A DNA stretch of 64,000 bases from Planctomycetota bacterium (lineage in GTDB: Bacteria > Planctomycetota > PLA2 > JAEUHO01), in NCBI GenBank assembly GCA_965222115.1, contig CBDCTJ010000007.1:2272001-2336000 (forward strand), in the 5' to 3' direction. A program made the translations under genes and the position numbers. Shown in pieces: positions 1,503 to 35,515 of the stretch. The first letter of the stretch is position 1, and every line of letters starts with the position of its first letter. The notes under the pieces are model-generated. The model was not told the origin of the DNA and ran no database searches. It saw nothing but the letters and a program-made list of their open reading frames with translations.

Positions 1503-1529
1503 GTGCGGATTTTGCCCATACACCGTATC
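1503..1529 (+). repeat. 27-bp dispersed motif (consensus GTGTGGATTTTGCCCGTACACCGTATC), copy 1 of 11
   Basis: Other copies on + are at 4529, 5412, 8032, 9138, 10777, 12303 and 35371. Copies on - are at 26905, 27648 and 27707. Confidence 0.85.
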
Positions 1530-1556
1530 CCCAAGACCGGCCTGGTGTCCCGCGAG

Positions 1557-2306
1557 CTAGAAATCCACCGTCACGCCGACTCGTAGCGTTGCGTCGCCGT
1601 GGGTGCGCCGCAACGAAACATTGGGACGTACGCGGGTTCGAAGCCAGCGGTCGTGTTCCAGCTCGCCAAAGAACGTGCCGAAGAAGTTGCCTGCACCCCA
1701 GCCCACAAGCACATCCGAGGGGTAGTGCTTTCTGGCTGAGACTCTCAAGGCTCCCGTCGCGACCGGTAGAAGTGTTAGCGCACCATCGAGCCACGGGCGC
1801 ACGTCGCGCCGAACACGAGAACGTTTCAGTGCGTATCGAAGGGACGCGGCGCTCCACGCTGTGTGCGACGTGTGGCCGGAGTAAAAACTCAGGTGGTTCT
1901 CTCCATTTGGACGTCGTCGATGCCACAACGCCTTGAAGGGTCGATTGAGCGCCTCGTTTGCCACGCCTGTCGATACGGTGCCCACGAAGGGATCCCACGA
2001 TTGGTACCGCGCACTCTCAACGCCGGAAACGGTCAACGCTCCTAGAACCGATCCACGCAGCAACGCGTCGCTGGCCCGCTCGGCAGCGTCGGTATCACCG
2101 TCGGCAAACTCATCGGAGATATCGTGATCCAAGTCGGCTGCATCGATCGCGATCCCCGCGACAATCGGCGCCCAGGTTCGCCAGTCGGTCGCTGCCGTCT
2201 GCAGTGCTTTCGAGTGTGTCGGCGTCCACCCAGTCGATGAGCACCCGCCCAGCAACAACGCTGACCAGCCGACCCACCACACCATTCGCGTTCGCCCGTC
2301 AGGCAT
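1557..2306 (-). CDS. PAP2-family phosphatase, probable lipoprotein
   Basis: PAP2 motifs K-x6-RP (KALWHRRRP), SFYSGH and R-x5-H-x3-D (RVSARKHYPSD), plus a lipobox-like LLGGC. Confidence 0.85.
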   Translation of the reverse strand: MPDGRTRMVWWVGWSALLLGGCSSTGWTPTHSKALQTAATDWRTWAPIVAGIAIDAADLDHDISDEFADGDTDAAERASDALLRGSVLGALTVSGVESARYQSWDPFVGTVSTGVANEALNRPFKALWHRRRPNGENHLSFYSGHTSHTAWSAASLRYALKRSRVRRDVRPWLDGALTLLPVATGALRVSARKHYPSDVLVGWGAGNFFGTFFGELEHDRWLRTRVRPNVSLRRTHGDATLRVGVTVDF

Positions 2307-2448
2307 GTTGGTATCTCGCCTCCCAACGCGCAGTGTACGAGTAAGCTACTGCGGCAGGGGGCCGTTGGCACGAATTTCGAATGCAGTGGTACAGCTTCCA
2401 TAAACAAGTAACGGGTGCAAATTTTCGTGGGTCATCCAGTAGCGCCCT

Positions 2449-2554
2449 CCCGTTCCCCGTCACCCGTCACCCGTTACCCGTACCCCGAAACCCGTTACCC
2501 GGTCTCAAGGTAGATCGCTCGATGAGCGATGCGTTCGGCGCTTAAGACGTGGAC
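2449..2554 (+). repeat. Composite unit of heptamer array + CTCAAGG core + single GTGGAC, overlapping the stop of the four-helix-bundle gene
   Basis: CCCGTCACCCGTCACCCGTTACCCG...CTCAAGG...CTTAAGACGTGGAC, homologous to 3149-3325 and 8684-8756. Confidence 0.75.
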
Positions 2555-2931
2555 GGCCAAGGCTCGTCGAATCTTCGTTGAAGCACGAACAACATGGCGG
2601 CGGATCGCTCAAGGGTGCTCATGACGGCGGAGATTGCGGCCTCGCTGGCGAGTCCGAGTAGTAGCGCGTGATGTAGAGCTGCGATGGCCTCGGTGCATTC
2701 GGCGTGTGCGATGTCGTACGCTTTGCGCTTCTCGGCTGGCCGCCGCTTCGCCAAGCCCTCTGCGACATTGAGTGCCACGCTGGTACTTGCGCGCCTGAGT
2801 TGGTCGGCAAGTTTTGCGTGGCCACGAGGCCATGCGGCGCACAGGGCGTTGCATCCAAGCGCGGCAGCTTGCGAAGCACGGTAGACATCGAAGCGTTTTA
2901 GGTATTCGAGCGTAGAAGACGCGCTTGTCAT
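2542..2931 (-). CDS. Four helix bundle protein (23S rRNA-IVP / bAvd-like family), copy A
   Basis: FDVY...LADQLRRASTSVALNVAEG...AYDIAHAECTE family signature. GGAG SD precedes ATG 2931. Confidence 0.85.
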   Translation of the reverse strand: MTSASSTLEYLKRFDVYRASQAAALGCNALCAAWPRGHAKLADQLRRASTSVALNVAEGLAKRRPAEKRKAYDIAHAECTEAIAALHHALLLGLASEAAISAVMSTLERSAAMLFVLQRRFDEPWPSTS

Positions 2932-2932
2932 G

Positions 2933-3082
2933 ATGGAACTCCAGCGTGAAGGGATCGCAAGCCGCTTGCTCGCGTGTGCCCCTCGTTGAAAGAGCCGAAG
3001 GCGAAGGAGGGCACACGCGAGGGGGTCGTACAAACAAGGCCCCGCGTGATAGCGACAACCCGTTCTCATGCTGGAGTTCCAT
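2933..3082 (-). other. Structured 5' leader of four-helix-bundle copy A
   Basis: A 17-bp inverted repeat (2933-2949/3066-3082, 1 mismatch) covers the SD and encloses a perfect 13-bp hairpin stem (2969-2981/3009-3021). Confidence 0.65.
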
Positions 3083-3217
3083 TACAAGCGGTGCCCGCGC
3101 GTACCGAACGCGCTGGTGCAACCGGCGGTGCTGTCCAAGGCCCTACCACCCGTTACCCGTCACCCGTTACCCGAACTCAAGGGTGATCATCCGAAGATCG
3201 ATTCGCGCCGCCTTAAC

Positions 3218-3325
3218 GTGGACGTGGACGTGGACGTGGACGTGGACGTGGACGTGGACGTGGACGTGGACGTGGACGTGGACGTGGACGTGGACGTGGA
3301 CGTGGACGTGGACGTGGACGTGGAC
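3218..3325 (+). repeat. (GTGGAC)18 perfect tandem repeat, preceded by heptamers + core (3149-3217)
   Basis: Read directly from the sequence. Confidence 0.95.
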
Positions 3326-3376
3326 GCGAATGGCAAGAACGCGCTAGTCGCATGCGTGCGACATTGGTAAGGTACC

Positions 3377-3532
3377 GAACTGATCGCTGTGTGACGTGAT
3401 TGCTCACTGGCAACACCCGCTTGGGAAGTGCTACGTGCATGCCCCTATTCGCCACAAGGGCGAGGGCACGCACTCGCATTCCCGCGGGTGTTTCCTCGTG
3501 GAGATTCTCGTATGTCACACAGCAATCAGTTC
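3377..3532 (+). other. Structured 5' leader of four-helix-bundle copy B
   Basis: 3377-3397 is complementary to 3512-3532 (ATG + first codons). An inner long hairpin spans 3412-3492 (AACACCCGC...GCGGGTGTT). Confidence 0.7.
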
Positions 3533-3898
3533 TCGGTTACTTCCACCGCGGGTCGGCTTGAACGATTCGACGTGTATCGAATCGCACGGCGTGCCGCGGC
3601 TAGCACTCACAAACTCTGTGGATCGCTGCCTCGAGGCAACGCGGAGCTTGCAAGCCAAGCTCGACGAGCCTCGACAGCCGTCGTCCTTAACATTGCCGAG
3701 GGCATTGGACGTGCCGGGGCAGGCGCAAAGCACCGTTCGTTCTCCATCGCTCGCGGCGAATGTGTCGAGGCGTCGGCGGCGCTCGACCTCATGCAGGCGA
3801 TGGACATCCTCGCGAATGCGAGCGCTGCTCCAACGCTTCGCGACCTAGATCGCGCCCGCGCAATGTTGAATGCGCTCATTCGTCGCTGGAGGGAATGA
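3512..3898 (+). CDS. Four helix bundle protein (23S rRNA-IVP / bAvd-like family), copy B
   Basis: RFDVYRIA...LASQARRASTAVVLNIAEG...FSIARGECVE, with a GGAG SD. Confidence 0.88.
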   Translation: MSHSNQFSVTSTAGRLERFDVYRIARRAAASTHKLCGSLPRGNAELASQARRASTAVVLNIAEGIGRAGAGAKHRSFSIARGECVEASAALDLMQAMDILANASAAPTLRDLDRARAMLNALIRRWRE

Positions 3899-3917
3899 GG
3901 GGTGCGCATTCCAGGTT

Positions 3918-4555
3918 CCCGTCACCCGTTACCCGTAACCCTCATTCAAGGGCGGGCATCCAATGAATGATGCGCGCCGCCTTAACGTGGACGTGGACGT
4001 GGACGTGGACGTCGAGAGCAAATGGCTTTGCCATTTGCACGAGACCCTGAGTAAGCACCAGCGGATCTTTGATCCGCGCAGTGCGCATCGAAGGGTGGAC
4101 GTGAACGATCTGAGCCTTCCCTTTGCCGACTCGCAGACGACGCTCCACGTCAACTTCAACGGCCCCGGGGGGGGGCACGGGTCAATAGCCCAGTGTGAAG
4201 CGCAAGCGCAGCGGCGCGTAACGCTGGGTTTAGACGTCCCCAAAATTGGCCACCCTGAAAGGGTGGCGGAAACCCACGAACATCTACACGCGTAATCTCG
4301 CACAGACGATTCGTGATTTTCATGGCCCCGATTAGAGACGTGTTCGTCGTAAGTGGTTTGAACCCTCTCCCCACAACGCCCTCTCCCAGAGGGAGAGGGG
4401 GGCTTTGACTTGGGAAAGACTGTGAGGCTAAGAGTTTGCGGCTCCCGTTGTCTTTTGGATTGCCTCAGCTGCGAACGAAACGCTGCGGACGGCGTGCGCG
4501 CTGGTGACTGAGCGCTGCTCCATGAAACGTGTGGATTTTGCCCGTACGCCGTATC
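3918..4555 (+). repeat. Full-length modular composite repeat: heptamers, core, (GTGGAC)4, CCCTGAGT..TCGAAGGG hairpin, REP-like 46-bp core, CCCTCTCCC..GGGAGAGGG hairpin, 27-bp motif
   Basis: Colinear with 8684-9164 and 12060-12329, and inverted at 27300-28190. Confidence 0.85.
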
Positions 4556-4658
4556 TCGATACCTCCCCCAAAGCCCCATATTTCGGGATGCATCCAATGT
4601 CGCCCTGGAATGTGTCAAAAACTGATACAAAATCGCTCTCCAGTGAGATACTGAAGAA

Positions 4659-5003
4659 ATGGCCCACCGCGAATCAAGAAATGTCTCGTTGGCTCCGGCC
4701 CAAGATCAATTCGTAAAGGCGATGGTGGATGGGGGCCGCTTTCGTACCGCCAGTGAAGTTGTGCGCGAGGCGCTGCGTCTATTGGAAGAGCGGGAGCATC
4801 GCCGCTTGCTTGAGAAGTGGATCTACGAAGGCCTCACAACCAATGAAGAGGCGCGACTACCCGAAGCAATTAAGAAGCGCGCTCGTGAGCACTTCGAGGG
4901 CCTCTTGTCCGCGCCGCTCGCAGATGTTGAGTACGGCAACGTTGCCGAAGGTGCGTCCGCCATGGCAAAGCTACGATCCGAACTCGAATCGCAGTCGGAC
5001 TGA
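4659..5003 (+). CDS. Type II antitoxin, ParD family (ribbon-helix-helix)
   Basis: NVSL...FVKAMVDGGRFRTASEVVREALRLLEERE signature. Confidence 0.88.
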   Translation: MAHRESRNVSLAPAQDQFVKAMVDGGRFRTASEVVREALRLLEEREHRRLLEKWIYEGLTTNEEARLPEAIKKRAREHFEGLLSAPLADVEYGNVAEGASAMAKLRSELESQSD

Positions 5004-5308
5004 GTTTCACGAGCTATCAACTAACCACCACAGCGGAAGAAGATCTACGCGTTGCTCTACAGTTTGTTGCCAAGCGAGACGGAGTCGACCGGGCACTCCG
5101 CGTGCACAACCGATTCCTCGAGACGTTTAGCGCCATCGCAGAAATGCCACGCATCGGGTACGTGCGACCGGGCTTGACAGGGAATCGCTTTCGTTGGTAC
5201 ACCGTATTCAAGTGGGTTGTGATCTACGACCCCGTGGGTTCACCCATCACGATTCTCCGAGTCTTGCACAGCGCTCAAGAACTAGACCGCATACTTGATG
5301 AAGACTAG
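5000..5308 (+). CDS. Type II toxin, RelE/ParE family (probable CTG start)
   Basis: SYQLTTTAEEDL...AEMPRIGYVRPGL...VVIYDP...ILRVLHSAQEL. The only start-like codon upstream of the N-terminal motif is CTG 5000, which overlaps the ParD TGA. Confidence 0.82.
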   Translation: MSFTSYQLTTTAEEDLRVALQFVAKRDGVDRALRVHNRFLETFSAIAEMPRIGYVRPGLTGNRFRWYTVFKWVVIYDPVGSPITILRVLHSAQELDRILDED

Positions 5309-5448
5309 ATGCAAGTGTGAGCTTTCTTGTCCCTGGTGGACACTCGACAATTATTCGCAAGTCAACGTCCGCGACGTTACTCGAATCGATCGCCGAACTT
5401 CTTCGCGAAACGTGTGGATTTTGCCCGTACACCGTATTCTCCATTCCC

Positions 5449-7851
5449 ATGAAGATCAATCGGACGCTTCGCGTGGCCATAGCCCTATTGTTTCTCGGGG
5501 CGTTGGGTTTCAGCTCGGCACATGGCAAAGACGTCGAAGTTTCAAAAGCCTGGGAACGCAACTGGAAACAGATTGAGCGTCATGACGTGCTTGAACTGGG
5601 CGGCATGAACACCAAGAAGGCCGCGCTTCGGGCGCTTCCGTTTTGGCTGGGGCAAACGGGGCTCATCGCACGCATGGATCGCGAGAAGCTTCGCTATGTC
5701 GTCACGGGCGTGACGAAGGGTTCACCGTCCGATGGGCTCATCAAAGAGGGCGATGTACTTGTGGGTGCAAATGGGAAGGCATTCGCGCGTCCAGAGAGTT
5801 ATCCCGAGTTCGTGGGTCCGCAAGTGGCACTCGGCAATGCGATGCTTGAGAGCTGGGGCAAGCACCAAGGGCAGTTCAAGCTCGACGTTGTGCGTGACGG
5901 CAAGCAGAAAGCCATCACCCTCACGCTTCCGGGTCGTGGCATGTTTGGGGCATCGTTTCCAGAAAAGGACGCGCTCGCCGACGCCATGATTTCGGCAGGC
6001 TGTTCGTTGCTTGTCGCTCGGCAGCTTCCGAGTGGTGCCTGGAGTACAGGCAAGAAGAAGGGTCGGAAGGCGCCCTCGTTCCACACAACATCCCTTGCGA
6101 CCCTCGCGCTTATGGCATCCGATGAGAAGCGTTGGCGTTCGGCGATTAAGCGTGCGGCGCACTGGCTGCGCGATCGCCCGCCGGCCAAACACTTTCTCTC
6201 ATGGCACTATCCCTACCTCGCCATTGTGTTGGGGGAGTACTACCTCCTGACCAAAGACAGCTCGGTGAAGCCGGTGTTTCAACGAGCCGCCGACCTCATG
6301 GTGGAAGGTCAGTTTGACTATTACGGCTCCGGACATTCGTCGTATACCGGCAACTATCGTGGCAATGGGATTTCTGTGTGTACGACTCACGTGCTGCTCG
6401 GATTGGCCTATGCCAAGCGGTGTGGCGCCAAGGTGCCCAGCGAAGTCTTGGGCAACACGATGGATCACATTGAACGCATCAGCCCGCACGGCGGCGTGCC
6501 TTACGTCATTTGGGGACGCACCGAGAAGGCCTTGAAGGAGCCGCCAACCACACCCAACAAGCGCAACGAACACGCCACGCGAACAGGAACGGCACTCATT
6601 GCGTTTCGAATGCTTGATGGTCATCCGGCCCATCAAAAGCGCATGAGTGACTTCCTCGCGCGCAATAGCGACTACATGGACAACGGCCATGCCACCGCCA
6701 ACACCCTCAGTTGGTTGTGGGGCTCTTGGGGGTTGGCGTGTGGCGATTCCAAAGGATTCGCCGATCACATGCGGCGGCGCGCGTGGTGGATTGCACTCAA
6801 GTGGCGACACGACGCGGGCACCATGTCGCAGCCCGCCGAGTGCGTGAACTTTCGCGGTTCCGATCATGCGCTCGGGCCCCACGCCGATGTTGCGTGTCAA
6901 GTCGCAGTGTTGGCCGCACCGCGTCGCACATTGCTCGCCACGGGTCGTGCGGATCGCAGCACCACAAGCGCGTCGGCTGATTCCAAGCGTCGCCTTGTTT
7001 CGCTCGCGCGTTGGGACCATCACCACGGACGGTTGCGTCGCCTTGATCTCATTCCTGCACTGATCAAGAAGAAGGTGCCATTGCTTGCGGACGTTCGAAA
7101 CGATCTTGCCGCATTAGATCCCGATAAGCCAAGTGAGTGGTCCAGGGGATACGAAAAGGTGGCCAAGCGGCTTCCGAAGTTGTGTCGTCAATTGCAGGCC
7201 GCTGCCAAGAACGAATATGACAAGCGCGCATGCGTTCTGCTCGCCACCGCGATTCGACCGAGCATCGACGTCAAACTCACACCCAAAGGCCTCCGCGTGC
7301 GCGGTCGCGTTGAGCAGATTCCCTTCGGCAGTGTGTCACTGCGACTCGTGTTTGATACAGGCGGGAAGGGCCGCGCTTCGGTTCGCAAGCTCCCCGCCAA
7401 CATCGAGGGCAATGCGAAAGGCGGACCGCTTGACCGGGCCAAGCACGAAGCGTTTAGGACCGTTCTCAAGCTCAAGGGCAAGGCGCCTACGCTGATCGAT
7501 TTGCCGGCGACATGTCATATGGAGTGGCAGGGTGTGACGCTCGCGTTTCCGGTGCGCATTCAACACGGAACCAACCCGCATCGCTTCGCCTTCGCCCATC
7601 GCCAACCCCTCATTCGCGTGCCGCTCAAGATCACGCAGTGGGGCAACGAGGGTGTGTTGCTCAGTGGCGGTCTTCGTGACCGTTTGACTTTGAGCTGCAA
7701 TCAAGTCGGCGCGCTCGATGGTGGCGCCTGGCGACTTCTCAAGCGCGAAGAACGCACCAAGAAGTTCCCGCCAAATTCAAAGGTCTGGTGTTCGCTCTAC
7801 GACTTGGGATTTCATCGTCCGTTTGTGCACCAGGTGCAGGCGTGGAAGTAG
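5449..7851 (+). CDS. Secreted PDZ + alpha/alpha-barrel protein (DUF6288-like)
   Basis: Signal peptide MKINR..SSAHG, PDZ-like segment LGQTG...VTKGSPSDGLIKEGDVLVGANG, and prenyltransferase-like repeats QLPSGAW and WHYPYLAIVLGEYYLLTKD. Confidence 0.7.
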   Translation: MKINRTLRVAIALLFLGALGFSSAHGKDVEVSKAWERNWKQIERHDVLELGGMNTKKAALRALPFWLGQTGLIARMDREKLRYVVTGVTKGSPSDGLIKEGDVLVGANGKAFARPESYPEFVGPQVALGNAMLESWGKHQGQFKLDVVRDGKQKAITLTLPGRGMFGASFPEKDALADAMISAGCSLLVARQLPSGAWSTGKKKGRKAPSFHTTSLATLALMASDEKRWRSAIKRAAHWLRDRPPAKHFLSWHYPYLAIVLGEYYLLTKDSSVKPVFQRAADLMVEGQFDYYGSGHSSYTGNYRGNGISVCTTHVLLGLAYAKRCGAKVPSEVLGNTMDHIERISPHGGVPYVIWGRTEKALKEPPTTPNKRNEHATRTGTALIAFRMLDGHPAHQKRMSDFLARNSDYMDNGHATANTLSWLWGSWGLACGDSKGFADHMRRRAWWIALKWRHDAGTMSQPAECVNFRGSDHALGPHADVACQVAVLAAPRRTLLATGRADRSTTSASADSKRRLVSLARWDHHHGRLRRLDLIPALIKKKVPLLADVRNDLAALDPDKPSEWSRGYEKVAKRLPKLCRQLQAAAKNEYDKRACVLLATAIRPSIDVKLTPKGLRVRGRVEQIPFGSVSLRLVFDTGGKGRASVRKLPANIEGNAKGGPLDRAKHEAFRTVLKLKGKAPTLIDLPATCHMEWQGVTLAFPVRIQHGTNPHRFAFAHRQPLIRVPLKITQWGNEGVLLSGGLRDRLTLSCNQVGALDGGAWRLLKREERTKKFPPNSKVWCSLYDLGFHRPFVHQVQAWK

Positions 7852-8101
7852 GGGCTACCTCGCGGGTACTCCCGCGGCATTCTCGAAGTTGGCCGCATGG
7901 GCTCACGGTCAACACTTAAATCGAGCTTCCTCGCGCATAGCGGGCGCCTTTCTGTACTTCGTTGAGCATCCTGCGTGTGACTGCAAGCAATGCGTTACAC
8001 GCGCCGGAGATCGGGCACTACGTCATGAAAAGTGTGGAATTTGTCCGTACACCGTATCTCTCCAAGTGGATCGCAGATCCACGTAGTGCGCACCGAAGGA
8101 C

Positions 8102-8605
8102 CTATTTACGGTTCGCGTCAAATCGACTGAACGCAAAGGCCTCAATTCGCCCTGCAAGCTCGGGCCGTCCGACTAGAACAACAATCCCTGGTACGTTGCT
8201 AACGTCCTGAAGCTCAGGATCAATCGCGCAGTCACGGAAGAACTCAAGCGCTTCTTCCAGGCTCTCGTCTGCATGCCACGTTGTCATCGTAAAACTTGGG
8301 CCCTGAGTCTCTCTAGTCTCACGCTCAACAAGAGTTTCATCCATAAGGTCGTGAAGCAGCTCGCAGTTTGGTCCCCATGTACAGAAGTATGCGAGTCCCT
8401 GCTCGATTGCCCGATCAGCGAACGAATTCCAAACTCGACATGCGTCTTCCGCAACGTCACGCCCGTCCATCACCATGAACAAGCTGAAGCGACGCCCTTC
8501 AATTGGCAAGTCCGTGGGCCAGTCGCAAAGGTCATCGAGCATAAGCAGCATGTACGGTCGACCCGTTGTACTTGAAGCGCTTGTGAGTTGTCGCTGGACC
8601 ATCAT
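8102..8605 (-). CDS. Conserved hypothetical protein
   Basis: Protein-like acidic ORF (YFCTWGPNCELLHDLMD, TMTTWHADESLEEALEFF). The longer ORF start runs through repeat DNA, so the start is trimmed to ATG 8605. Confidence 0.65.
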   Translation of the reverse strand: MMVQRQLTSASSTTGRPYMLLMLDDLCDWPTDLPIEGRRFSLFMVMDGRDVAEDACRVWNSFADRAIEQGLAYFCTWGPNCELLHDLMDETLVERETRETQGPSFTMTTWHADESLEEALEFFRDCAIDPELQDVSNVPGIVVLVGRPELAGRIEAFAFSRFDANRK

Positions 8606-8683
8606 GCTGGGCAGTGTAGCTAGAGTCGTGGCGTAGGGATCGCAAAGAAGTGCCGGGGTCGAGTTTGTGGTCTTGCGTGACTG

Positions 8684-9164
8684 CCCCCGTTCCCCGTTAC
8701 CCCGACTCAACGGTGAGTGTTCGGTGATCGATTCGAGCCACTTTAAGACGTGGACGTCGAGAGCAAATGGCTTTGCCATTTGCACGAGACCCTGAGTAAG
8801 CACCAGCGGATCTCTGATCCGCGCAGTGCGCATCGAAGGGTGGACATGAACGATCGAGCCTTCCCTTTGCCGACCCGCTGGCGATGCCCCACGTCAACTT
8901 CAACGGCCCCGAAGGGGCCACGGAACAATAGCCCAGTGTGAAGCGCAAGCGCAGCGGCGCGTAACGCTGGGTTTAGATATCCCCTAAAAAGAGCCCACCC
9001 TGAATGGGTGGTGGAAACGCACGAGCATCGGGAAGCGGAATCTCGCATAAGCGATTCGCGGTCTTCATGGTGGAGATTGGAAACGTGTTCGTTGGAAGTG
9101 GCAGTTGCGGATGGTGACCGAGCACTACGCCATGAATGTGTGCATTTTGCCCGTACACCGTATC
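8684..9164 (+). repeat. Modular composite repeat, copy 2
   Basis: Near-identical to 4011-4350 (GAGAGCAAATGGCTTTGCC...; 46-bp core at 8927-8972) and ends in the 27-bp motif at 9138-9164. Confidence 0.88.
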
Positions 9165-9246
9165 TCCGTATCCCACGGGTGGGCGTAGCCGGTACGCAGG
9201 ATCTCTGAATCTGGTGGGAAGAAACACGGAAACGTCTCCCAGACCC

Positions 9247-9666
9247 TTAGTACCCCTTAGGGAGGAAGATGCTGGGCAGATCATTCTGGCTTGCCATTTC
9301 AACCAGCCCACTGGTCATTTCTGGACACACGTCATTGTCGCGTTTCGGATTTGACGACTTCACGGGCTCGGTTTTATGCAAACTATCAACGGTTCGTGTA
9401 TCGCCAGGTGTATCGCCCGATTTCATCCTTACGAATCTGGCGCCGATCCCAACAATGACCGCAGTACAGATCACTTGTAAGATCGGGAGCAGTGGGTACT
9501 GAATACCATCATGCTTCTTTAGAAATACCGCCGCTATGAGTCCAAGGCCTAGAATGGTACCGCCGATGGCCTGCACGATTTTGACGCGAGCGTTTGCAAG
9601 TATGCGAATGACTTCAGCGGCATCATCTTCTTTGACTTTTTGGATAAGTATGTGTTCAGCGTTCAT
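9247..9666 (-). CDS. Small two-TM membrane protein
   Basis: ATGA overlap with the upstream gene stop at 9663-9666, and two hydrophobic segments. Confidence 0.6.
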   Translation of the reverse strand: MNAEHILIQKVKEDDAAEVIRILANARVKIVQAIGGTILGLGLIAAVFLKKHDGIQYPLLPILQVICTAVIVGIGARFVRMKSGDTPGDTRTVDSLHKTEPVKSSNPKRDNDVCPEMTSGLVEMASQNDLPSIFLPKGY

Positions 9667-10148
9667 ACACCACTCGATTTCTTCTGCCCTTGTGATGTGA
9701 TCCAGAGTTCCGTGCGCCAAATCTCAAGCCGATTACCAAATGCCATGACCACCGCGCCGTTGGGATGTGTCGGTACGGCGTCCAGCACGCGGGCCCATCG
9801 CGGCAACTGAATAGTTAGGCGATCAGACTCAATGTGCAATCGCACGGGTCCGAAGTATCGAGTGGTCAGACCGGGCACCGAGGCTGGCGGCACGTCGTCG
9901 TCGAATTCGATCTCGTCATCCTCTGCTTGCTGCCACGGGCTCGTATCGGTGCCGGGCGCGTAGAGCACGAGCTTTCCACTCATTGCGACCCAGGCGACGG
10001 CGTCTTCGCCCTTTTTGAGCTCGTTGATCCACCGGACTTGCCGCGCAAACTCCAGCGGGACGCGCACACGATTTTGAGGTTCAACCTTCCGAAATTCGTG
10101 GCGGTGGGCATCGCTCACATTAACTCCTGCCAGCAGCTTGAGGTCCAT
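9663..10148 (-). CDS. MraZ-like (SpoVT/AbrB fold) DNA-binding protein
   Basis: VEPQNRVRVPLEFAR and AVVMAFGNRLEIWRTELW resemble the MraZ DxxxRxxxP and GxxxEIW motifs, and the length is similar to MraZ. Confidence 0.6.
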   Translation of the reverse strand: MDLKLLAGVNVSDAHRHEFRKVEPQNRVRVPLEFARQVRWINELKKGEDAVAWVAMSGKLVLYAPGTDTSPWQQAEDDEIEFDDDVPPASVPGLTTRYFGPVRLHIESDRLTIQLPRWARVLDAVPTHPNGAVVMAFGNRLEIWRTELWITSQGQKKSSGV

Positions 10149-10816
10149 TGATCATACATGAAATGGGAGCACAAATGAGCCTATATAAGCCTTTATCAGC
10201 CCAGATTATCGAATATACAAGATGTAGAACTATAAGATCGGTTTACCTACAAGATGCAGATTCAGGATCCAGGCGGTGGCCTGTGTCTACGGTTCGAATC
10301 AGTGGCCTTATTGCGAAACTGGTGTTTCCGCAGGCGACAACTCTCGCGCTCGCTCTTATGGCACGTAAGTAGATACGGTCTGATAGCGAATTGGACCTGA
10401 GGATCAAGATGGGGAACTGGTGGGAAGTGACCCATTCCGTCAGTCTTGAGCTGCAGATATTGGGTGCACATCGCGTGGACCGCGACATGAAGCCGAAGTG
10501 CGTCACTATTGGGCCGTGCAGAGGTGCTTCTGGAAACGACTCATCCGCCGGTTTGCGAGACGCAGCAGCAGCCGTTCAACGTCTATTTGGACGAATCCCG
10601 CCTCCGAACTTCGGGCGAGTGAACCGCCTCAGGGTGCTTCGTCTTCGTAGTGAAGACGATGCGTTGGCGACACATGTCGACTGCGTTTGTACCACCTTCA
10701 TGGAGAGCGCTGCGTACCCGCAACGCTTGGGCAGCATATCCGCCTTCTGCACGCTCGAGTTTCCTAGCAATGAAAAATGCGGTTTTTGCCCGTACACCGT
10801 ATCCCTTTCTGCATCT

Positions 10817-23702: not shown

Positions 23703-23704
23703 AT

Positions 23705-24883: not shown

Positions 24884-24962
24884 CGATAGAGATGCCTATT
24901 CGAGCGCGTGTGTATTCACCCCCTAACGCACGTCTTGGGTCACACGCTTTCTGATAGAGTGC

Positions 24963-26900
24963 TTGCCCGTGAGAATTCCAATACAAATACTCTTGGTTGG
25001 CGCGCTTGTATTGGCAGTCCTCGCGATTCGTTTGTCATTACAGCCACCTCTACCACGCTATCCCGAATTTAGATCCGTAACCGAAACCGAGAAAGAGGCC
25101 ATTCGCGCGGCGTTTTCGTTTGAAGAAAAACGCCTCACATTTCAGAGCACGAAGACGGCAGAACAACTTGCGGCGTCCTTGGAGCGCTTTCGTCCCATCG
25201 CTGTACTTGCGGCGTATCAAGATGCGTTTGATCGACTCAGGGGATCAAGCGTAAAGGAGATGTCCGCGACGTTGCTGGATCACGATCGTATGCCGATTGG
25301 AACTTGGCTGTCGAGCAAGCGCGATAGCAATCTCAATACCGTGCTGATTCGTATCCTGACCAATGAAGACGAGGCGTTCCCCATTCGCGATTCTGCGGCG
25401 GTTGCCCTTTGCTGGGAGGGGAACGAATCGGCTCTCAACGACCTATCCGATTTCGTCCTCGACATGAATGCGAGCCCTGACGTGCGCACGCGTGTGCTTG
25501 GGCGATTGCATCGTATTCGCGTTCGGCCGCCCAAGGCGTTCGACGTGCTCCTCCAGTTGCCGTTTCGGAATCACGACTTCTATGCGGCAGCCATCTTGGC
25601 GGTGGTCGGGGCGTCGCAGGCGCCACGTCTTGTGGCCGAGGGGCTTCTGCATGTTGGCGCAGACGATGATCTTGGCCATGTACTGGCCCTGGCTTCGGAG
25701 GCTATCGCTGCGGATGACACGCGCGTTGTCGCACTTGCACGGGTTGCGCAACGGCGAATCGTCGATGCCTGGCTTGCTAGGGATCTAGGTGACGAGCCCT
25801 TGCCGACGTTTCCCATGGAGGCTCTCTCGGGCGCCGACGTACCTGAGGATGTATTGACACGTTTGAAGGATCGGACCTACTCATCGCGTGACGCACTCCA
25901 TGCGCTTGGCGCCGTGTTTACGCAGTGGATCAGTGATCATCCCCAGGTGTTGGATAGTGATTTCGAGCGTCGATGGACGCGGCACACGCGGAGCGAGACG
26001 TACGAGCTTGCGCGCAAGACGCTAAAGGACAGCCTGGAGGGCCCAGTACGGTATGAGCCCTTTGATGTAGCTGCGGCGCACATTGCGAGTGTGACGAACC
26101 ATGAGGACCATTGTCCTCGCGTGTTGAACGCATTTGATCGTCTCGCACTATTGTTAGCCAAAGATATAGAAGGGCTTCGCGAGCCGGACGCAATCCTTCG
26201 ACAAATGCATCGTCGGCTTCTGCCACAACGGATTCGGTATCGATCCGGTTATGAGATGGATCCAAGTTCGTTTCTCTACAACGTATTGCATGACCGAACT
26301 GGAAATTGTGTGGGGCTGACGTCGCTCTACGTGGCACTTGGCCAGCGTTTGAATCTTCCGCTCGTGGCCGTGAGTTCACCGAGGCACGTGCATTTGCGCT
26401 GGAAAGATGCGCATACGACACTGGACATCGAACTCACTGATCGAGGTCGGATTCTTGATCCCAGCGAGATTAGCGGCAAACCCACGCGCGAATTGTCGAT
26501 GCGGGCGCTCGTTTCGATCGCGTTGTCGAATCGTTCCATGAGCTATGCACTATCGGAGCGACTAGCGGATACGCCCATGCGAAGACGTATAGCGAAAGCA
26601 TCTGCGTTGCGCGCGCAGGCGTGGGATCCGAAAAATGGCGGCGGCTATCTTGCACAGGCGATTTGTGAAACGATTGAGAAGAATCATGAGCGCGCCATCG
26701 AATGCGTAGAGCACGCCATGGCCTTAATGCCCAATGAAGCAGAGCCACTTGGAGCGATGGGGCAGGTCTTGCTTGAGCGTGGAGACATAAAAGATGCGCA
26801 AGCATGGTTCGAACGCGCGCTTCGGATTGATCCGGAAAATGAAGTGGCGAAACGTGGCATTGAGCTGTGTCAGACTCGGGCCCAAAGCGGTTCGAGATGA
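24963..26900 (+). CDS. Transglutaminase-like (SirB1-type) + TPR protein with N-terminal membrane anchor
   Basis: GNCVGLTSLYVALGQRLNLPL...PRHVHLRW and C-terminal TPR helices. Confidence 0.72.
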   Translation: MPVRIPIQILLVGALVLAVLAIRLSLQPPLPRYPEFRSVTETEKEAIRAAFSFEEKRLTFQSTKTAEQLAASLERFRPIAVLAAYQDAFDRLRGSSVKEMSATLLDHDRMPIGTWLSSKRDSNLNTVLIRILTNEDEAFPIRDSAAVALCWEGNESALNDLSDFVLDMNASPDVRTRVLGRLHRIRVRPPKAFDVLLQLPFRNHDFYAAAILAVVGASQAPRLVAEGLLHVGADDDLGHVLALASEAIAADDTRVVALARVAQRRIVDAWLARDLGDEPLPTFPMEALSGADVPEDVLTRLKDRTYSSRDALHALGAVFTQWISDHPQVLDSDFERRWTRHTRSETYELARKTLKDSLEGPVRYEPFDVAAAHIASVTNHEDHCPRVLNAFDRLALLLAKDIEGLREPDAILRQMHRRLLPQRIRYRSGYEMDPSSFLYNVLHDRTGNCVGLTSLYVALGQRLNLPLVAVSSPRHVHLRWKDAHTTLDIELTDRGRILDPSEISGKPTRELSMRALVSIALSNRSMSYALSERLADTPMRRRIAKASALRAQAWDPKNGGGYLAQAICETIEKNHERAIECVEHAMALMPNEAEPLGAMGQVLLERGDIKDAQAWFERALRIDPENEVAKRGIELCQTRAQSGSR

Positions 26901-27020
26901 GTGGGATTCGGAGTATGCCCCAATTCCACACGTTTCGTTCGGTCGTGCTCGGCCACCAACGCGCACGCGATACGCAACGATTCGTTCGCGGCTCGCGGCA
27001 CGCCGGGCTATCATGCGTGC

Positions 27021-27304: not shown

Positions 27305-28190
27305 GAGGGTTTACGGGCACGAACGACAATCCAATGGTCTCGCCAGCCGCAAACGGCACTTCTGACGAACACGTTTCAAATCGCAGCAATGGAGAACACA
27401 AGACACTCATGCGCGATGCCGCTCGCAGATTTCTGTTCGTTTCCGCCACCCCTACAGGGTGGTTCCATTTTGGGGACGTCTATACCCAGCGTTACGCGCC
27501 GCTGCGCTTGCGCTTCACACTGGGCTATTGACCCGTGGCCCCTCCGGGGCCGTTGAAGTTGACGTGGAACGCCGTCTGCGAGTCGGTCAGTAAGAGGTTC
27601 TGACGCTGCGCGGGAGACCGTATCGCGGAGACGAGGGCACGGTGGGGGATACGCAGTACGGACAAATTTCAAACGCTTCGCGGTATATGGACCTGGGAAG
27701 CGGTGGGATACGGAGTACGCCAAAATCCACACATCTCGTTCGGCCGTGCTCGGCCACCAACGCGCTCGCCATACGAAACGATTCATTTGCAGCCCGAGGC
27801 AATCAAGAGCTACGAAATCAAAGCGCGTTGTTGTCGCCAGCTCTGAAGCCCCCCTCTCCCTCTGGGAGAGGGGGGTTGGGGGGTGAGGGTTTACGCATAC
27901 GAACGACGATTCAGTGGTCTCGCCATCCGCAAACGGCACTTCCGACGAACACGTTTCAAACCGCAGCGATCGAAAACACATAACACTCATGCGCGATGCC
28001 GCTCGCTGATTTACGCTCGTTTCCGCCACCCCTACAGAGTGGTTCCATATAGGTACGCCGTAACCCAGCGTTACGCGCCGCTGCGCTTGCGCTTCACACT
28101 GGGCTATTGTCCCGTGGCCCCTCCGGGGCCGTTGATGTTGATGCGGAACGCCGTCGGCGAGTCGACTAGTAAGAGGTTCTCACGCTGCGT
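27300..28190 (-). repeat. Two inverted-orientation copies of the modular composite repeat (27300-27610 and 27640-28190)
   Basis: 46-bp cores at 27484-27529 and 28063-28108, 27-bp motifs at 27648 and 27707, and a CCCTCTCCC..GGGAGAGGG hairpin at ~27852. Confidence 0.88.
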
Positions 28191-29079: not shown

Positions 29080-31029
29080 ATGAATGAACAAGCCCCCCTC
29101 GTAGTTGAACGACTTTTGGCTGAGCGACAGTGGTTGTGTGCGCTTGCGCGTTCTTTGGTACGTGATGAAAACGCCGCGGATGACCTGGAGCAGGATGCTT
29201 GGGTGGCATCGATGAAGAAGCCGCCGATTTCCGGTGCGTCACCGCGGGGTTGGTTGGCGACGGTGGTTCGCAATCGCGCACGGGACAACCACCGACGGAC
29301 TATGCGACGCGCAACGCGTGAGGCACGGGCGGCGCGACCGGAGGCACAGCGTTCAGCGGCAGAGTTGGCGGAGCAGGCGGATACGCAGCGGCGGGTGATT
29401 GAGGCGGTGTTGGCGCTAGAACAGCCGTACCGAACTACCGTGCTCATGCGCTACTTCGACGAACTTGACGTGCGGGAGATCGCCGCTCGCATGGACACGA
29501 CCCCTTCCACCGTTCGCACGCGCTTGTCGCGCGCCATGGCGCGACTGCGTGCGGCGCTTGGGCAAGCGTACGGCAACGACGTGGCATGGAAGCGCGCCCT
29601 CGTTCCGTTCTTAGCAACCGGCTCGTCGTCGCACGGTTCATCTATTCGTCGATCGGCGAACGAGGACAAGCGCGGACAGGCGACATCGTCCGGTGGACGG
29701 CTTGGCTTTGCGCTCGCGCTTGCGAGTCTGTTGGCGGTGGGGAGCGTTTTTTGGTGGGCGCCTTGGCAGTCCGACGTATCTGTGGAACGAGCGCCAACGA
29801 CTGCTAGCGCCTCGGCGGATGTGTCTCCACCTCGGCTCGAAGGCGGTGCTCGAGATAACTCTCTTGAGGCCTACGATGCGAATCGAAGCGAGGAATCGGC
29901 AGCTCGGGAGCGTGCGGGTCGAGAAGGAGGCGCGAAGCCACCCTCAAATACGAGCGCCCAGAAGTCCGGAGGTGTCATTCGAGTCGTCGTGCTTGATGGA
30001 CAGTCCAGTGTGGTCGAAGGCGCCGATGTGCTCCTAATTGATCGCAGCGACGCAAAGCATCCGATTCGAGGCGCTCTCTTGGGTCGTGCCACATCCGACG
30101 CGGAGGGACGCGCAACGTTTGAAGGCATTGCACCGAAGGGCAATCTTCATGTTCGTGCGGCCTATCAGGAAACGTCCGCGATTACGGGGGAGTTCGATGG
30201 CAGCCAGCCGCCTCGTGACCCGATACGCGTTGTTCTCGGACCGTCACGCGTCATCGCGGGTCGCGTGATCAATGACGACGGGCATGCGATTGCGGACGCC
30301 ACCGTATTCGTCCATGCGCGCTTTGAAGGCGCCATCATTGCCATTGCGATTCAGCCCACCGACGATTTGGGAGCGTTTCGAATTGCAGGGCTGCCTGAAT
30401 CGTTGCTCAACGTCGGCGAAGAGAAGCCCGCTTCCATCGAAGTGCGCGCCAAGGGCTATGGGGAGTGCTGGCACGAGCTGTCAAACACGAACGAAAACCT
30501 AGGCCAACTCACCCTCAAGCTATCGAAATCGCGCACCATTGAGGGCCGCATCGTCAATGAGCGTGGGCACCCCATTGCGGATGCGGGCTTGGAGTTTCCC
30601 GACTCGGTTGGTGGGACATCCACAAACAGCGAGGGCCGGTTTCGCGCCGGTCGATTGCCTCAACGCACCGTCAAGCTTCGTATCAATTCAACCCAGCATG
30701 CACCGCGCCTCATTGATGTGCCGTTCGAAGGGCAGTTCAAACGCAATCTGGGTGATATCGTCTTGCATCCCGGGAAACCGATCGCGGGTATCGTGCTCGA
30801 CAAAGACGGCAATCCCCTATCGGGCGCCCTAGTTGCCATCTCCAGCGATGCGGTGGATCAGATTGTCCGGCAGGGCGAGTCCGACGAGCACGGCCGCTTC
30901 CGGTTCGAGCACTTTGGTGAGGGGGAACACAAAATCTATCTGTTCACCGACAGCGGCGATAAGGCCACACGCACGGGCGTGAGTGCCGGGGAAGAGAACG
31001 TAGAGATTCGCTTAGGCGGCGGAAAGTAG
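29080..31029 (+). CDS. ECF sigma-70 factor fused to a TM segment and carboxypeptidase-regulatory-like (beta-sandwich) repeats
   Basis: Region 2 AADDLEQDAW..RGWLATVVRN, region 4 EIAARMDTTPSTVRTRLSRA, and repeated IxGRxxNxxGHxIADA units. Confidence 0.85.
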   Translation: MNEQAPLVVERLLAERQWLCALARSLVRDENAADDLEQDAWVASMKKPPISGASPRGWLATVVRNRARDNHRRTMRRATREARAARPEAQRSAAELAEQADTQRRVIEAVLALEQPYRTTVLMRYFDELDVREIAARMDTTPSTVRTRLSRAMARLRAALGQAYGNDVAWKRALVPFLATGSSSHGSSIRRSANEDKRGQATSSGGRLGFALALASLLAVGSVFWWAPWQSDVSVERAPTTASASADVSPPRLEGGARDNSLEAYDANRSEESAARERAGREGGAKPPSNTSAQKSGGVIRVVVLDGQSSVVEGADVLLIDRSDAKHPIRGALLGRATSDAEGRATFEGIAPKGNLHVRAAYQETSAITGEFDGSQPPRDPIRVVLGPSRVIAGRVINDDGHAIADATVFVHARFEGAIIAIAIQPTDDLGAFRIAGLPESLLNVGEEKPASIEVRAKGYGECWHELSNTNENLGQLTLKLSKSRTIEGRIVNERGHPIADAGLEFPDSVGGTSTNSEGRFRAGRLPQRTVKLRINSTQHAPRLIDVPFEGQFKRNLGDIVLHPGKPIAGIVLDKDGNPLSGALVAISSDAVDQIVRQGESDEHGRFRFEHFGEGEHKIYLFTDSGDKATRTGVSAGEENVEIRLGGGK

Positions 31030-33351: not shown

Positions 33352-33500
33352 TCGACCTCCGACGCTAGACTAGTCGGGTTGAGGCGCCTCACCGAGCTAT
33401 GGAACCATGGCGCCCAGGCTCGCGCCGTACGTGTGCGGCGGCGCGTGCGCTCAAAACAATATGAAACCACCCGCGGGAAGCGGGCGTTATGAGGTGCACC

Positions 33501-35207
33501 ATGCGGGACGTATCGAACCAAGGCATCGTGTTTCAAGACATCGAGGCGTCGGCGCCCGATCCCGAGGGGCTTGTCGATCAGTATGCCAAGTTGAATGCGG
33601 CCTATGACGAGGCGAAGGACGCCGCGGAGCGTGAGAAGGCCGTGGCTGCTTGGGACGCCCTGCGGCGGAGTGTGTCCACGTGGCATTCGCTTGTGGGACT
33701 AAAGTTCAACCAAGACACGCAGGATGCCGAGCGCAAAGCCGCACTGGATTTTCGCAACGAGTTGGCCCCTAAAATTCAGGAGCACGATCTGGCGTTTATT
33801 CGCCGCGTGGTCTCGGGTGAACATGCGGGCGAACTGTCTTCCAAGTACGGGCGTCAACTGTTGGACTTGTGGGATTGCCAATCCGCATCGTTCGATCCCG
33901 CAATCGAAGAGGAACTCGTAGCCGAGTCCAAGACGGCTTCCGAATACGTTGAACTTACCTCGTCGGCTCGATTTGAGTACAAAGGCGAGACCCTCACGCT
34001 CTCTGAGTTATCCAAGTACCGCGAACACAGCGACCGAGACGTGCGTCACGAGGTCAGCGGAATGTCGTGGGGATGGTTTGAAGACAACGCCGAGAAGCTC
34101 GATCAGATCTTTGATCGACTCGTTGGGCTTCGCGTGACGCAGGCCAAGGCGCTGGGTTACAAAAACTTCGTTGAGCTCGGCTACAAGAAGATGAGCCGGA
34201 TCGACTACAACCAAGACGACGTCGCGCGCTACCGCAAGGCGGTCAAGGACTTTGTGGTTCCGCTGTGTTCCGAGATTCGCGAGAGTCAGCGAAAGAAGCT
34301 CGGCGTGGACAAACTCATGGCGTGGGACCTGCCGGTCCACGACCCGAAAGGCAATCCCAAGCCCAAGGGCGACTATGAGTTCATGGTCAAGCAGGCCCGT
34401 GCCATGTTTGATGAGATGGGCGGGGGCCTTGGCAAATTCTTCCGCGTCATGTCCGATGGCGAGCTCATGGATCTCAAATCGCGTAAGGGCAAAGCGGGTG
34501 GGGGATTTTGCACGAGTTTCCCCAAGTACGGCGTGCCCTACATCTTTGCCAATTTCAATGGCACCAAGGGCGATGTGGAAGTGTTCACGCATGAGATGGG
34601 ACACGCGTTTCAGTGTTGGTCCAGCTCCGACGACCGGATCATGGACACGATTTGGCCCACCTACGAAGCCGCCGAAGTTCACTCCATGAGTCTTGAGTTC
34701 TTGACGTGGCCCCACATGGAGAAGTTCTTTGGCGATGATGCCGAGCGTTTCCGCAAACTCCATCTCACGCAATCGCTGCTCTTCTTGCCCTACGGTGTGG
34801 CCGTGGATCATTTCCAACACCTTGTGTATGAGCGTCCCGATGCAACGCCCGCCGAGCGCCTTGCCCTGTGGAAAGACATGGAAGCTACGTATCTGCCCGA
34901 GTGGGATCACGGCGACCTCAAGCGCGCTGCCGACGGCGGACTCTGGCAACGTCAACGCCATATCTATCGTATGCCGTTTTATTACATCGATTACACGCTG
35001 GCACAAGTGTGCGCGTTTCAATTTCTGCGCCTGTCGCGCAATGATCCCGACGACGCCATGGCGCGCTACGTGAAGCTCTGCAAGCGCGGCGGCGAGGCAC
35101 CCTTCCAGGAACTTGTGCGTTCAGCGGGACTACGCAGCCCCTTTGATGACGGCTGCTTAGAAGATGTCGTAACCACGGCACGCGAAGCGCTCGGTGCCTC
35201 CGTCTGA
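33501..35207 (+). CDS. M3B-family oligoendopeptidase
   Basis: GKAGGGFCT, FANFNGT, HEMGHAFQ, EVHSMSLE and HIY.MPFYYIDY motifs. Confidence 0.92.
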   Translation: MRDVSNQGIVFQDIEASAPDPEGLVDQYAKLNAAYDEAKDAAEREKAVAAWDALRRSVSTWHSLVGLKFNQDTQDAERKAALDFRNELAPKIQEHDLAFIRRVVSGEHAGELSSKYGRQLLDLWDCQSASFDPAIEEELVAESKTASEYVELTSSARFEYKGETLTLSELSKYREHSDRDVRHEVSGMSWGWFEDNAEKLDQIFDRLVGLRVTQAKALGYKNFVELGYKKMSRIDYNQDDVARYRKAVKDFVVPLCSEIRESQRKKLGVDKLMAWDLPVHDPKGNPKPKGDYEFMVKQARAMFDEMGGGLGKFFRVMSDGELMDLKSRKGKAGGGFCTSFPKYGVPYIFANFNGTKGDVEVFTHEMGHAFQCWSSSDDRIMDTIWPTYEAAEVHSMSLEFLTWPHMEKFFGDDAERFRKLHLTQSLLFLPYGVAVDHFQHLVYERPDATPAERLALWKDMEATYLPEWDHGDLKRAADGGLWQRQRHIYRMPFYYIDYTLAQVCAFQFLRLSRNDPDDAMARYVKLCKRGGEAPFQELVRSAGLRSPFDDGCLEDVVTTAREALGASV

Positions 35208-35515
35208 ACGGATCGCGTGCGCCGGTAGTGGGTTGACCTCACGCAGAGACGCCACGATTCAGAGGCGCAGTGGGAATCTCGCCGATCTGCCATGAGCCTT
35301 GGCGTTACGTCCCTGCGCCCCCGCGCTCTTCGCGCCCTTGCGTGAGGTAGATTGCACCCAACTTAGACGCGTGTGGTTTTTGTCCGTACTCCGCATCGCG
35401 CATTTGCATAGTCTGTACACCCTTTCCCAAACCTGAGCCGCCGCCGTTCGTTGTGTAAAGGAGTTAGGGACTCAACAGATTCTGGGCTGGCATGCCACAC
35501 TTCGAGGAGACTCGC

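Follow-up and report, generated by a model that had tools for sequence, protein, structure and literature searches.

A lineage-restricted ~35-bp repeat at the edges of accessory genes in a planctomycete genome and its possible origin as the ends of MITE-like elements

In a 64,000-nucleotide stretch of the genome of a Planctomycetota bacterium (G000, positions C7:2272001-2336000; the whole stretch is called the window below), eleven copies of a 27-bp motif stand beside accessory genes, and an earlier note on this DNA, here called the original prediction, took the motif for an integron-like recombination site that bounds gene cassettes. We find that the 27-mer is the core of a lineage-specific repeat of ~35 bp that is not an integron site, and we read the repeat tentatively, with somewhat less than even confidence, as the ends and solo ends of elements resembling miniature inverted-repeat transposable elements (MITEs). 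The bacterial MITEs, among them the Correia or NEMIS elements of Neisseria, are the closest described parallel. Like them, the repeat makes up short non-coding units with terminal inverted repeats of ~30 bp, lies between genes and near gene ends, is restricted to a lineage and is present or absent among similar loci. Unlike them, the unit described here has no regular target-site duplication, the interiors of its pairs are mostly unrelated, its copies are mostly solo and often stand in co-oriented arrays, and no parent insertion sequence (IS) with the same ends was found.

Four other systems share some of these features. The 38-bp terminal repeats of the Tn21 family are entered by IS4321 and IS5075 at one fixed position and in one orientation. 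An IS1111-type element likewise sits at a fixed position and orientation inside the planctomycete repeat, whose sequence is unrelated to the Tn21 repeats. In the pdif sites of Acinetobacter plasmids, XerC and XerD arms enclose a 6-bp spacer, and the orientation alternates from site to site. They bound small accessory modules, often toxin-antitoxin pairs, with short conserved sites, as do the copies in the window, but no such dyad is seen by eye in the unit, and the window copies are direct. Arrays of integron attC sites are also co-oriented between small accessory units that include toxin-antitoxin genes, their conservation also ends abruptly on one side, and, according to PMC11187229, they too are targets of IS1111-family elements; here, in contrast, there is no IntI, no hairpin and no GTTRRRY core, genes run both ways, and long non-coding repeats and inverted pairs occur among the sites. 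Finally, repetitive extragenic palindromic sequences (REPs), the bacterial interspersed mosaic elements (BIMEs) built from them, and REP doublets forming hairpins (REPINs) with their REP-associated tyrosine transposases (RAYTs) offer an extragenic unit of ~35 bp that occurs tens of times, frequently behind genes, as singlets and as tandem and inverted pairs, and REPs are a target class of IS110/IS1111 elements (PMC11187229). The unit described here differs in having no palindrome, in that the Y1 transposase gene of the genome is accompanied by another repeat, and in the clustering of its copies in islands.

A sharply ended repeat confined to one lineage

The assembly that holds the window comprises 4.55 Mb in seven contigs and is 90% complete; one contig, C6 (48,116 bases), has a GC content of 39.7%, against 55-59% in the other six, and almost no predicted genes, and may be foreign DNA or a mis-binned contig. 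An information profile of 45 ungapped copies defines a discrete, asymmetric and non-palindromic unit of ~35 nt around the 27-mer, with the consensus CGAAAAGTGTGGATTTTGCCCGTACACCGTATCYC and an information content of 1-2 bits over ~35 positions that falls to near 0 on either flank. The unit holds two conserved boxes about one helical turn apart and ends in a conserved CCGTATCYC, with no GTTRRRY core; a subtype B reads ..GTGTGAAATCGTTCCTGACACCGTATC. A profile search with nhmmer found 56 copies genome-wide at E<1 and 49 at E<=1e-3 (the set used below), with none in the reversed genome, and 33 copies lie within six mismatches of the 27-mer, again with none for the reversed pattern. All eleven window copies are real, seven of them plus-strand sites that match at 1-3 mismatches where 100 dinucleotide shuffles gave no match. 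The motif is thus confirmed, as is its place at the core of a lineage-specific repeat.

The one-sided character that the original prediction had ascribed to the motif is borne out by pairwise alignment of 35 copies, in which no pair remains similar for more than 19 nt beyond GTATC and similarity on the GTGTGG side, confined to subfamilies, extends leftward for up to 494 nt. Runs of similarity longer than ~5 nt past GTATC consist of reiterated CCGTATC heptamers, and after many copies this terminal heptamer is repeated in variable number. Read by eye, the unit shows GTGT..ACAC as its sole dyad and no two-arm dyad of the dif or pdif kind. The copy at 4522 of the window is of a long type, with a left extension of ~100 nt (4425-4521) common to seven other copies. 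A conserved RNA structure in this extension was rejected, the consensus fold of ten copies reaching only -2.9 kcal/mol with five pairs. As to coding potential, some changes look synonymous on reading, but a stop interrupts one copy and indels shift the frame in two.

We searched 40 related genomes, 24 from the same family, 11 from the same order and 5 from the same phylum. At <=3 mismatches, the 27-mer has 22 matches in its own genome and none in the 40 relatives, and a degenerate two-box pattern has 23 and none, respectively. Exact scans of public collections returned seven single matches in genome contigs from unrelated taxa and four in metagenome contigs. The unit is therefore restricted to its own lineage among the genomes searched, which argues against a conserved transcription-factor site. 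The titles and abstracts found on 23S rRNA intervening sequence (IVS) protein repeats, on integrons and attC, and on MITEs in Planctomycetes do not describe the motif. The relatives offer no synteny at the window: the best ortholog of its M3 peptidase is 62% identical, and in the 60 kb around the ortholog in the relative G008 this peptidase is the sole window gene matched as an ortholog, three further queried genes giving weak partial matches of 31-39% identity. They are thus too distant for defining insertions.

Where neighboring copies in the genome lie at most 600 nt apart, they form six inverted and six tandem pairs. Every inverted pair points its GTATC ends outward, and none points them inward. 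Four of the tandem pairs run from an A-type or A-like unit to a B-type or B-like one, and the spacer is conserved at three loci. The inverted similarity of the inverted pairs spans the unit, reaching 60 nt in one pair. As in MITEs, terminal inverted repeats bound short non-coding units, here of 137-515 bp (six pairs). One of these, a 327-bp unit at C3:482355-482681 with inverted copies at its ends, recurs 4 kb away at C3:486272-486689 with 77-91% identity; in the second unit one terminal copy is intact, and the similarity stops at its outer GTATC end, whereas an IS interrupts the other. A comparable boundary is found upstream of a 282-aa gene with seven paralogous loci, one of which carries a block of ~137 nt where four others have 6 nt instead. 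The block consists of a reverse B unit, a spacer, a reverse A unit and a degenerate forward copy, and it begins exactly at the GATAC end; the two remaining loci of the family carry the motif with differing outer flanks. A second candidate for such a filled-versus-empty comparison, at C7:2559292, lies in a variable region and showed no clean insertion. Paralogous loci with a HEAT-repeat gene and an RHS gene (HEAT-RHS loci) likewise begin their mutual similarity exactly at the GATAC end.

A further breakpoint lies beside a tyrosine-recombinase gene. A perfect copy at C7:645786-645812, with one extra heptamer, abuts a pseudogene of this family (C7:645813-646516) that has lost its first ~183 codons and contains two frameshifts. 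Homology of the pseudogene to an intact 403-aa relative in genome G013 (86% over the query piece) starts 13 nt after GTATC, and no paralog was found in its own genome. The intact G013 homolog adjoins a Fic-type gene. Two perfect copies of the motif flank the 7.3-kb segment C7:645813-653134 that begins with this integrase remnant. As the motif is open in the integrase frame, we considered a split integrase of the SSV type and rejected it: comparison with the intact G013 homolog places the break inside ..NRDLTLASAVFQWA.., just upstream of the conserved ..YVDENP.., and homology runs only from GTTCCAG. Together, these boundaries support the view that the motif is a breakpoint or end sequence of DNA rather than a conserved regulatory site.

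An IS1111-type insertion sequence within the repeat

The IS that interrupts the second 327-bp unit is 1,532 bp long, and its 365-aa product combines a DEDD_Tnp_IS110 and a Transposase_20 domain (PF01548, PF02371). Its subterminal inverted repeats of 11 bp, ATGAAAAGGCC and GGCCTTTTCAT, leave terminal extensions of 7 and 3 nt, and a non-coding region of 383 nt lies 3′ of the transposase gene. A DEDD transposase, subterminal inverted repeats of 11-13 bp, extensions of 7 and 3 nt and a long 3′ non-coding region are the traits given for the IS1111 family in PMC11187229, and the element is an IS1111-family IS. It is present in three copies with 98-99% identity, all outside the window (C3:484747-486278, C7:506861-508423 and C7:2360461-2362002). 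Two of the three lie inside the motif, after GATACNG and in one orientation, with the insertion point ATACGG^AGTACGGG. The third sits in the non-coding region of another IS copy, at a similar ..CG^AGTCCGGG; behind it, part of its own 3′ non-coding region is repeated in tandem (three matches of ~330 nt). A suspected second IS110-type insertion at C7:2975112 was not borne out.

Elements of this kind are reported to target repeats: beside the attC sites and REPs mentioned above, entries in the reference list of PMC11187229 name the terminal repeats of the Tn21 family as IS1111-type targets, and targeting of REPs by IS110/IS1111 elements is reported in 10.1101/2025.01.17.633520. A comparison of the putative seekRNA with the target gave one 7-mer match (CGTACTC), and shuffled non-coding regions give at least one in 54% of trials. 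The insertions show that this lineage has the motif as an established repeat, without telling which kind of repeat it is.

Genes around the copies

The copies are spread over at least 20 loci and cluster in the window, at C7:641.8-669.6 kb, at C3:451-494 kb, at C1:96-118 kb and at five paralogous HEAT-RHS loci. Beyond the genes checked with Pfam, gene calls come from a crude codon-score open reading frame (ORF) picker, on which the counts of neighbors and gene ends given here depend. The median codon score per codon is 0.091 in genes flanking a copy and 0.127 in the genome (Mann-Whitney p=3e-12), and the copies are not spread among core genes but clustered in accessory-gene islands of atypical codon usage. 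They stand beside genes of accessory types: ParDE, a DUF433 pair, type I restriction-modification (RM) genes, DUF4143 ATPases, CdiI-type immunity genes, BlaI/BlaR-like regulators, a pPIWI-associated nuclease, RHS proteins and fusions of extracytoplasmic function (ECF) sigma factors with CarboxypepD_reg. Both DUF7684 genes adjoin a copy. Of the 49 copies, 22 have a predicted gene end at most 130 nt from their GTATC end and four have one that close on the other side, which fits an element body on the GTGTGG side. The GTATC end faces a stop codon in 36 of the 49.

The HEAT-RHS loci (C1:97549-105206, C5:78029-85647, C7:1565179-1573025, C7:2549427-2556964 and C3:454639-460623) each hold a HEAT-repeat gene followed by a gene for an RHS protein of ~2,100 aa with a variable C-terminus. 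The copies on C1 and C5 are 97.4% identical over 7.2 kb with flanks at 75-87%, a difference that suggests gene conversion. Fusions of ECF sigma-70 and CarboxypepD_reg lie at 29080-31029(+) of the window, C7:642089-645631(-) and C7:2456285-2459752(+); the family has ~41 paralogs, six of them within 4 kb of a copy, and the genome has 61 Sigma70_r4_2 matches. The abundance of these fusions, along with families such as DUF6288, suggests a planctomycete-like bacterium.

In the window, the first seven units are on the plus strand. The unit at 1496-1530 (E=8.8e-9) places its GTATC end 27 nt from the stop, at 1557, of a minus-strand PAP2 gene, and the long-type unit at 4522-4557 lies 103 nt upstream of parD. 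A solo unit at 5406-5438, with no other repeat around it, is found 115 nt past the stop of parE and 10 nt before the ATG, at 5449, of a DUF6288 gene. The parD-parE pair (4659-5290, plus strand; PF03693 6.4e-11, PF05016 4.1e-12) has co-oriented units on both sides, the unit 4556-5438 measuring 883 nt. Further along, the GTATC end of the copy at 8025-8060 is 43 nt from the stop of a minus-strand DUF7684 gene, the copy at 9135-9166 forms the right end of a composite non-coding block (8685-9175) and is followed by one extra CCGTATC heptamer, the copy at 10771-10805 is 13 nt from the stop, at 10817, of a minus-strand 321-aa gene with no Pfam match, and the copy at 12296-12330 closes the block 12049-12341 on the right and precedes a DUF4209 gene by 120 nt. 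A 14.5-kb segment of defense type follows (12450-26900), with DUF4209, type I RM hsdM/S/R, DUF5131, a DUF4143 ATPase and a transglutaminase-TPR gene; it is bounded by two inward-facing GTATC ends, at 12330 and 26903. The second belongs to a degenerate long-type unit with a 1-nt indel on the minus strand (26903-26938; E=1.1e-4), whose GTATC end is 4 nt past the transglutaminase/TPR stop at 26900. Also on the minus strand is a tandem doublet (27646-27739), made of an A-type unit (27705-27739), a 24-nt spacer and a B-like unit (27646-27680), with ~90 nt between its outer GTATC end and the end of the DUF433 toxin-antitoxin-like pair; the 27-mer at 27648(-) has six mismatches, and that at 27707(-) a 1-nt indel (nhmmer E=7.6e-5). 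The last copy, a diverged plus-strand unit with four mismatches (35366-35398; E=8.6e-5), lies 94 nt upstream of a 606-aa gene.

The distances to neighboring starts and stops reported in the original prediction are correct, and the copies are intergenic by both the ORF picker and Pfam, two apparent cases inside genes being ORFs over-extended upstream of the real start. Its account of the genes and units held up less well. Pfam agrees with ParD and ParE, and also supports the PAP2, DUF433 and DUF4209 genes; the supposed PDZ protein is the DUF6288 protein, with no PDZ match at E<=0.01, and neither the "MraZ-like pair" (9247-9720, 9663-10148) nor the "nuclease-like gene" (10817-11782) matches a Pfam family. 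Nor do consecutive sites always delimit one or two genes, since the unit 1530-4555 contains three genes together with non-coding repeats. In the blocks 1344-1529, 2412-4558, 8685-9175 and 12049-12341, a motif copy is the last module of composite non-coding sequence. The largest of these blocks (2412-4521, ending in copy 4522) comprises CCCGT[CT]A arrays, two four-helix-bundle genes, a (GTGGAC)n tract at 3217-3327 and the modules W, X, Y and "long".

The two four-helix-bundle genes (2542-3069(-) and 3428-3898(+)), which we take to be 23S rRNA IVS-like, are each flanked by CCCGT[CT]A heptamer arrays, and sixteen paralogous DNA modules of this type (78-89% identity) lie at C7 2.31-2.85 Mb, mostly far from the motif. 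Of these sixteen modules, counted without the 37-kb query stretch, just two have a copy within 5 kb, and a link between motif and four-helix-bundle genes was dropped. So was one with the heptamer arrays, four of eleven being near copies and all four of these in the window. The (GTGGAC)n tracts lie at 3217-3327 (~18 units), at 3988-4010 and near 8750, with up to 112 BLAST matches genome-wide. The minus-strand ORF 8102-8833 reads its first ~50 codons from module W, and its DUF7684 match begins at residue 113; the true start probably lies further downstream. Rfam at gathering thresholds found two tRNAs only in the window, at 41259-41329(-) and 44396-44479(-).

Origin of the repeat

The enzymes that might act on the unit were searched with seven transposase and recombinase families (PF00665, PF01609, PF13358, PF04986, PF00239, PF01797 and PF00589) and with the integron integrase model; as the assembly is 90% complete, absence from it is not proof of absence. 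None of the seven PF00589 and two PF01797 matches falls in the window, in agreement with the original prediction that it holds no recombinase or transposase for the motif. Of the PF00589 matches in the genome, only two touch a copy, and these form the one broken gene at C7:645.8-646.5 kb. Three non-Xer tyrosine recombinases lie at C7:2445 kb, C7:2413 kb and C4:20 kb. The best match to the integron integrase model TIGR02249 scores 86 bits against a cut-off of 265, with none above the cut-off. DNA folds of eight copies gave z from -1.68 to +0.22 relative to shuffles and thus no attC-type hairpin, and RNA folds of nine reverse-strand copies gave z from -3.55 to +1.42 with a median of ~0.03, no better than shuffles for a hairpin of the REP type. 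No serine recombinase (Resolvase) and no Y2 HUH transposase was matched in the genome, the control genomes also giving no Y2 match, and the sole intact Y1 (RAYT-like) gene, C7:1411595-1412047, is flanked by a different repeat with no motif match near. The proposal that an HUH transposase builds the arrays accordingly finds no candidate among these genes. With neither GTTRRRY core nor hairpin, the motif is not attC-like, as the original prediction had already recognized. Its description as an integron-like site holds for a unit end or breakpoint beside accessory genes and fails for the mechanism: there is no IntI and no attC hairpin, genes run both ways and half of the close pairs are inverted. 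The motif is not integron-like in mechanism.

What is shown here is a repeat family that ends sharply on its outer side, the geometry of its pairs, a duplicated unit between paired copies, a block present or absent among paralogs, and the IS insertions. The outward-only pairs, the duplicated unit, the paralog indel and the one-sided closeness to genes fit best with MITE-like ends. In such a scheme, the unit would be the terminal repeat at the outer end of small, non-autonomous, non-coding mobile elements that make up a lineage-specific family. A complete element would consist of two inverted copies with their GTATC ends outward, each full end perhaps holding two direct units, A then B, 5-132 nt apart, and many of the present copies would be solo ends remaining after deletion or recombination. 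The elements would have gathered in flexible genome islands where insertions are tolerated, and their accumulation there would explain why copies sit at the edges of accessory units; the units would now also serve as a programmed landing site for the IS1111-type IS. From this picture we infer that the family spread by transposition, that the solo copies derive from full elements, and that the responsible enzyme is encoded in the 10% that the assembly lacks, no longer exists in the genome or comes from a family outside those searched.

Several findings weigh against this scheme. A target-site duplication was seen at one of the six inverted pairs (TTCAGA), and none of the 49 single units is bounded by a direct repeat of >=4 nt. 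Pair interiors are mostly unrelated, with only one unit present twice. Most copies are solo, and for seven window copies no degenerate partner was found even at E<=50. No autonomous parent came to light: rve genes are present without the repeat at their flanks, and DDE_Tnp_1, DDE_3, Y2_Tnp and Resolvase gave no match, Tn3 and other families not having been searched. Moreover, 14 of the 19 neighbors 0.6-12 kb apart are co-oriented, and solo arrays of seven and six copies occur, which independent insertions would not predict. Two compact toxin-antitoxin units have co-oriented copies on both sides and look like cassettes, and together with the arrays they keep alive the reading of the unit as a recombinase site.

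According to that reading, the main rival, which we consider rather unlikely, the unit is the site at which a trans-acting recombinase, either a tyrosine recombinase or an RNA-guided DEDD enzyme, integrates, excises or inverts gene units with a crossover at the GTATC end, each unit carrying its own site at one end; the system would work like an integron without being one. The co-orientation of neighbors just described would follow naturally, as would arrays that delimit units of 0.9-3 kb in the window (seven sites) and of 0.17-10 kb at C7:641.8-669.6 kb (six sites), the accessory cargo (ParDE, the DUF433 pair, type I RM, CdiI, BlaI/BlaR-like and Rhs genes) and the sharp, one-sided boundary of conservation. 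Mis-registered exchange could give the variable number of CCGTATC heptamers, inverted pairs could be invertible segments, and the 7.3-kb segment between two perfect copies starts with an integrase remnant. That remnant, broken and 5′-truncated, is however the only PF00589 gene touching a copy (two of the seven matches), no IntI or serine recombinase was found, and the site has neither dyad symmetry nor a hairpin. The units delimited by the two arrays hold from zero to seven genes on both strands together with long non-coding repeats, and the 327-bp duplicate and the ~137-nt indel are non-coding, bounded by inverted copies and not products of excision or integration. Nor was a recombinant junction recovered from four sequencing runs of one study, in which the stretch is present as low-depth contigs. 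Over 4050-20000, every joint that a run contig makes at a motif position matches on its short side over 27-33 letters, as much as one repeat, and is thus indistinguishable from other copies. One run, X2, has a hole at ~8.8-16.7 kb with no bridging contig. Runs X1 and X4 contain contigs ~91% identical to window 4425-4672 (21 differences in 248), and in the X4 contig position 4425 is preceded by a motif copy and CCCCCA instead of the window sequence, indicating that a related strain with a different arrangement occurs in the same samples. None of these contig results speaks for or against recombination. A bolder form of the idea, non-integron cassette exchange at an asymmetric, unstructured ~35-bp site by a non-IntI recombinase (an RNA-guided DEDD enzyme related to IS1111 would be the candidate) that shuffles toxin-antitoxin, RM, Rhs-immunity and sigma-factor units with a crossover at the GTATC heptamer, strikes us as unlikely.

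A REP- or BIME-like repeat kept by selection for a host role (protein binding, insulation or termination of transcription, or mRNA stability), spread by gene conversion or another route and only incidentally a recombination anchor, would account for the ~35-bp length, the strictly extragenic position, the reverse motif downstream of a gene stop in the 36 copies counted above, conservation confined to the unit with its two boxes a helical turn apart, and the attraction for IS110/IS1111 elements reported for REPs in 10.1101/2025.01.17.633520 and PMC11187229. We think this decidedly unlikely: the unit is non-palindromic and folds, as RNA or DNA, no better than shuffles, the only intact Y1 gene has another repeat at its flanks, none of the 40 relatives has it even as a degenerate pattern, which speaks against a conserved role in the host, the copies cluster in islands and not among core genes, and the integrase cut 13 nt past one copy marks a breakpoint and not an evolved site. 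Even less can be said for the copies as attachment-site scars of integrative islands that were stacked in tandem and later lost their integrases. Direct arrays, atypical codon usage of the cargo and the 7.3-kb segment with two perfect flanking copies and an integrase remnant at its start are as expected of such scars, but ordinary integration does not truncate an integrase at codon ~184 next to the site, as has happened here, many units are shorter than 1 kb, tight inverted pairs occur among the at least 20 scattered loci, and no intact integrase adjoins any copy; we regard this origin as very improbable. The least credible of these explanations makes the unit a directional promoter or operator, for example for an ECF sigma factor, that drives the gene on the GTATC side. 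Seven copies do lie 10-130 nt upstream of a start codon (10 nt for DUF6288, 16 nt for CarboxypepD_reg), and six of the 41 ECF-sigma/CarboxypepD_reg paralogs adjoin copies. Against this, the GTATC end mostly faces a stop codon, orientation relative to the sigma-fusion genes is mixed, the spacing of the boxes, judged by eye, is off both ECF and sigma-70 geometry, and the unit is absent from relatives that share the same gene families.

If the unit is the site of a recombinase after all, it would represent a second, independent bacterial route to cassette arrays, of relevance to research on integrons and defense islands. If, as we favor, the units are the ends and solo ends of MITE-like elements, they would document a non-palindromic family of this kind in a poorly studied lineage, marking its flexible genome and serving as a landing pad for an IS1111-type IS. 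Such a family would help in annotating genomes, in locating islands and in learning how RNA-guided IS elements select repeats as safe targets.

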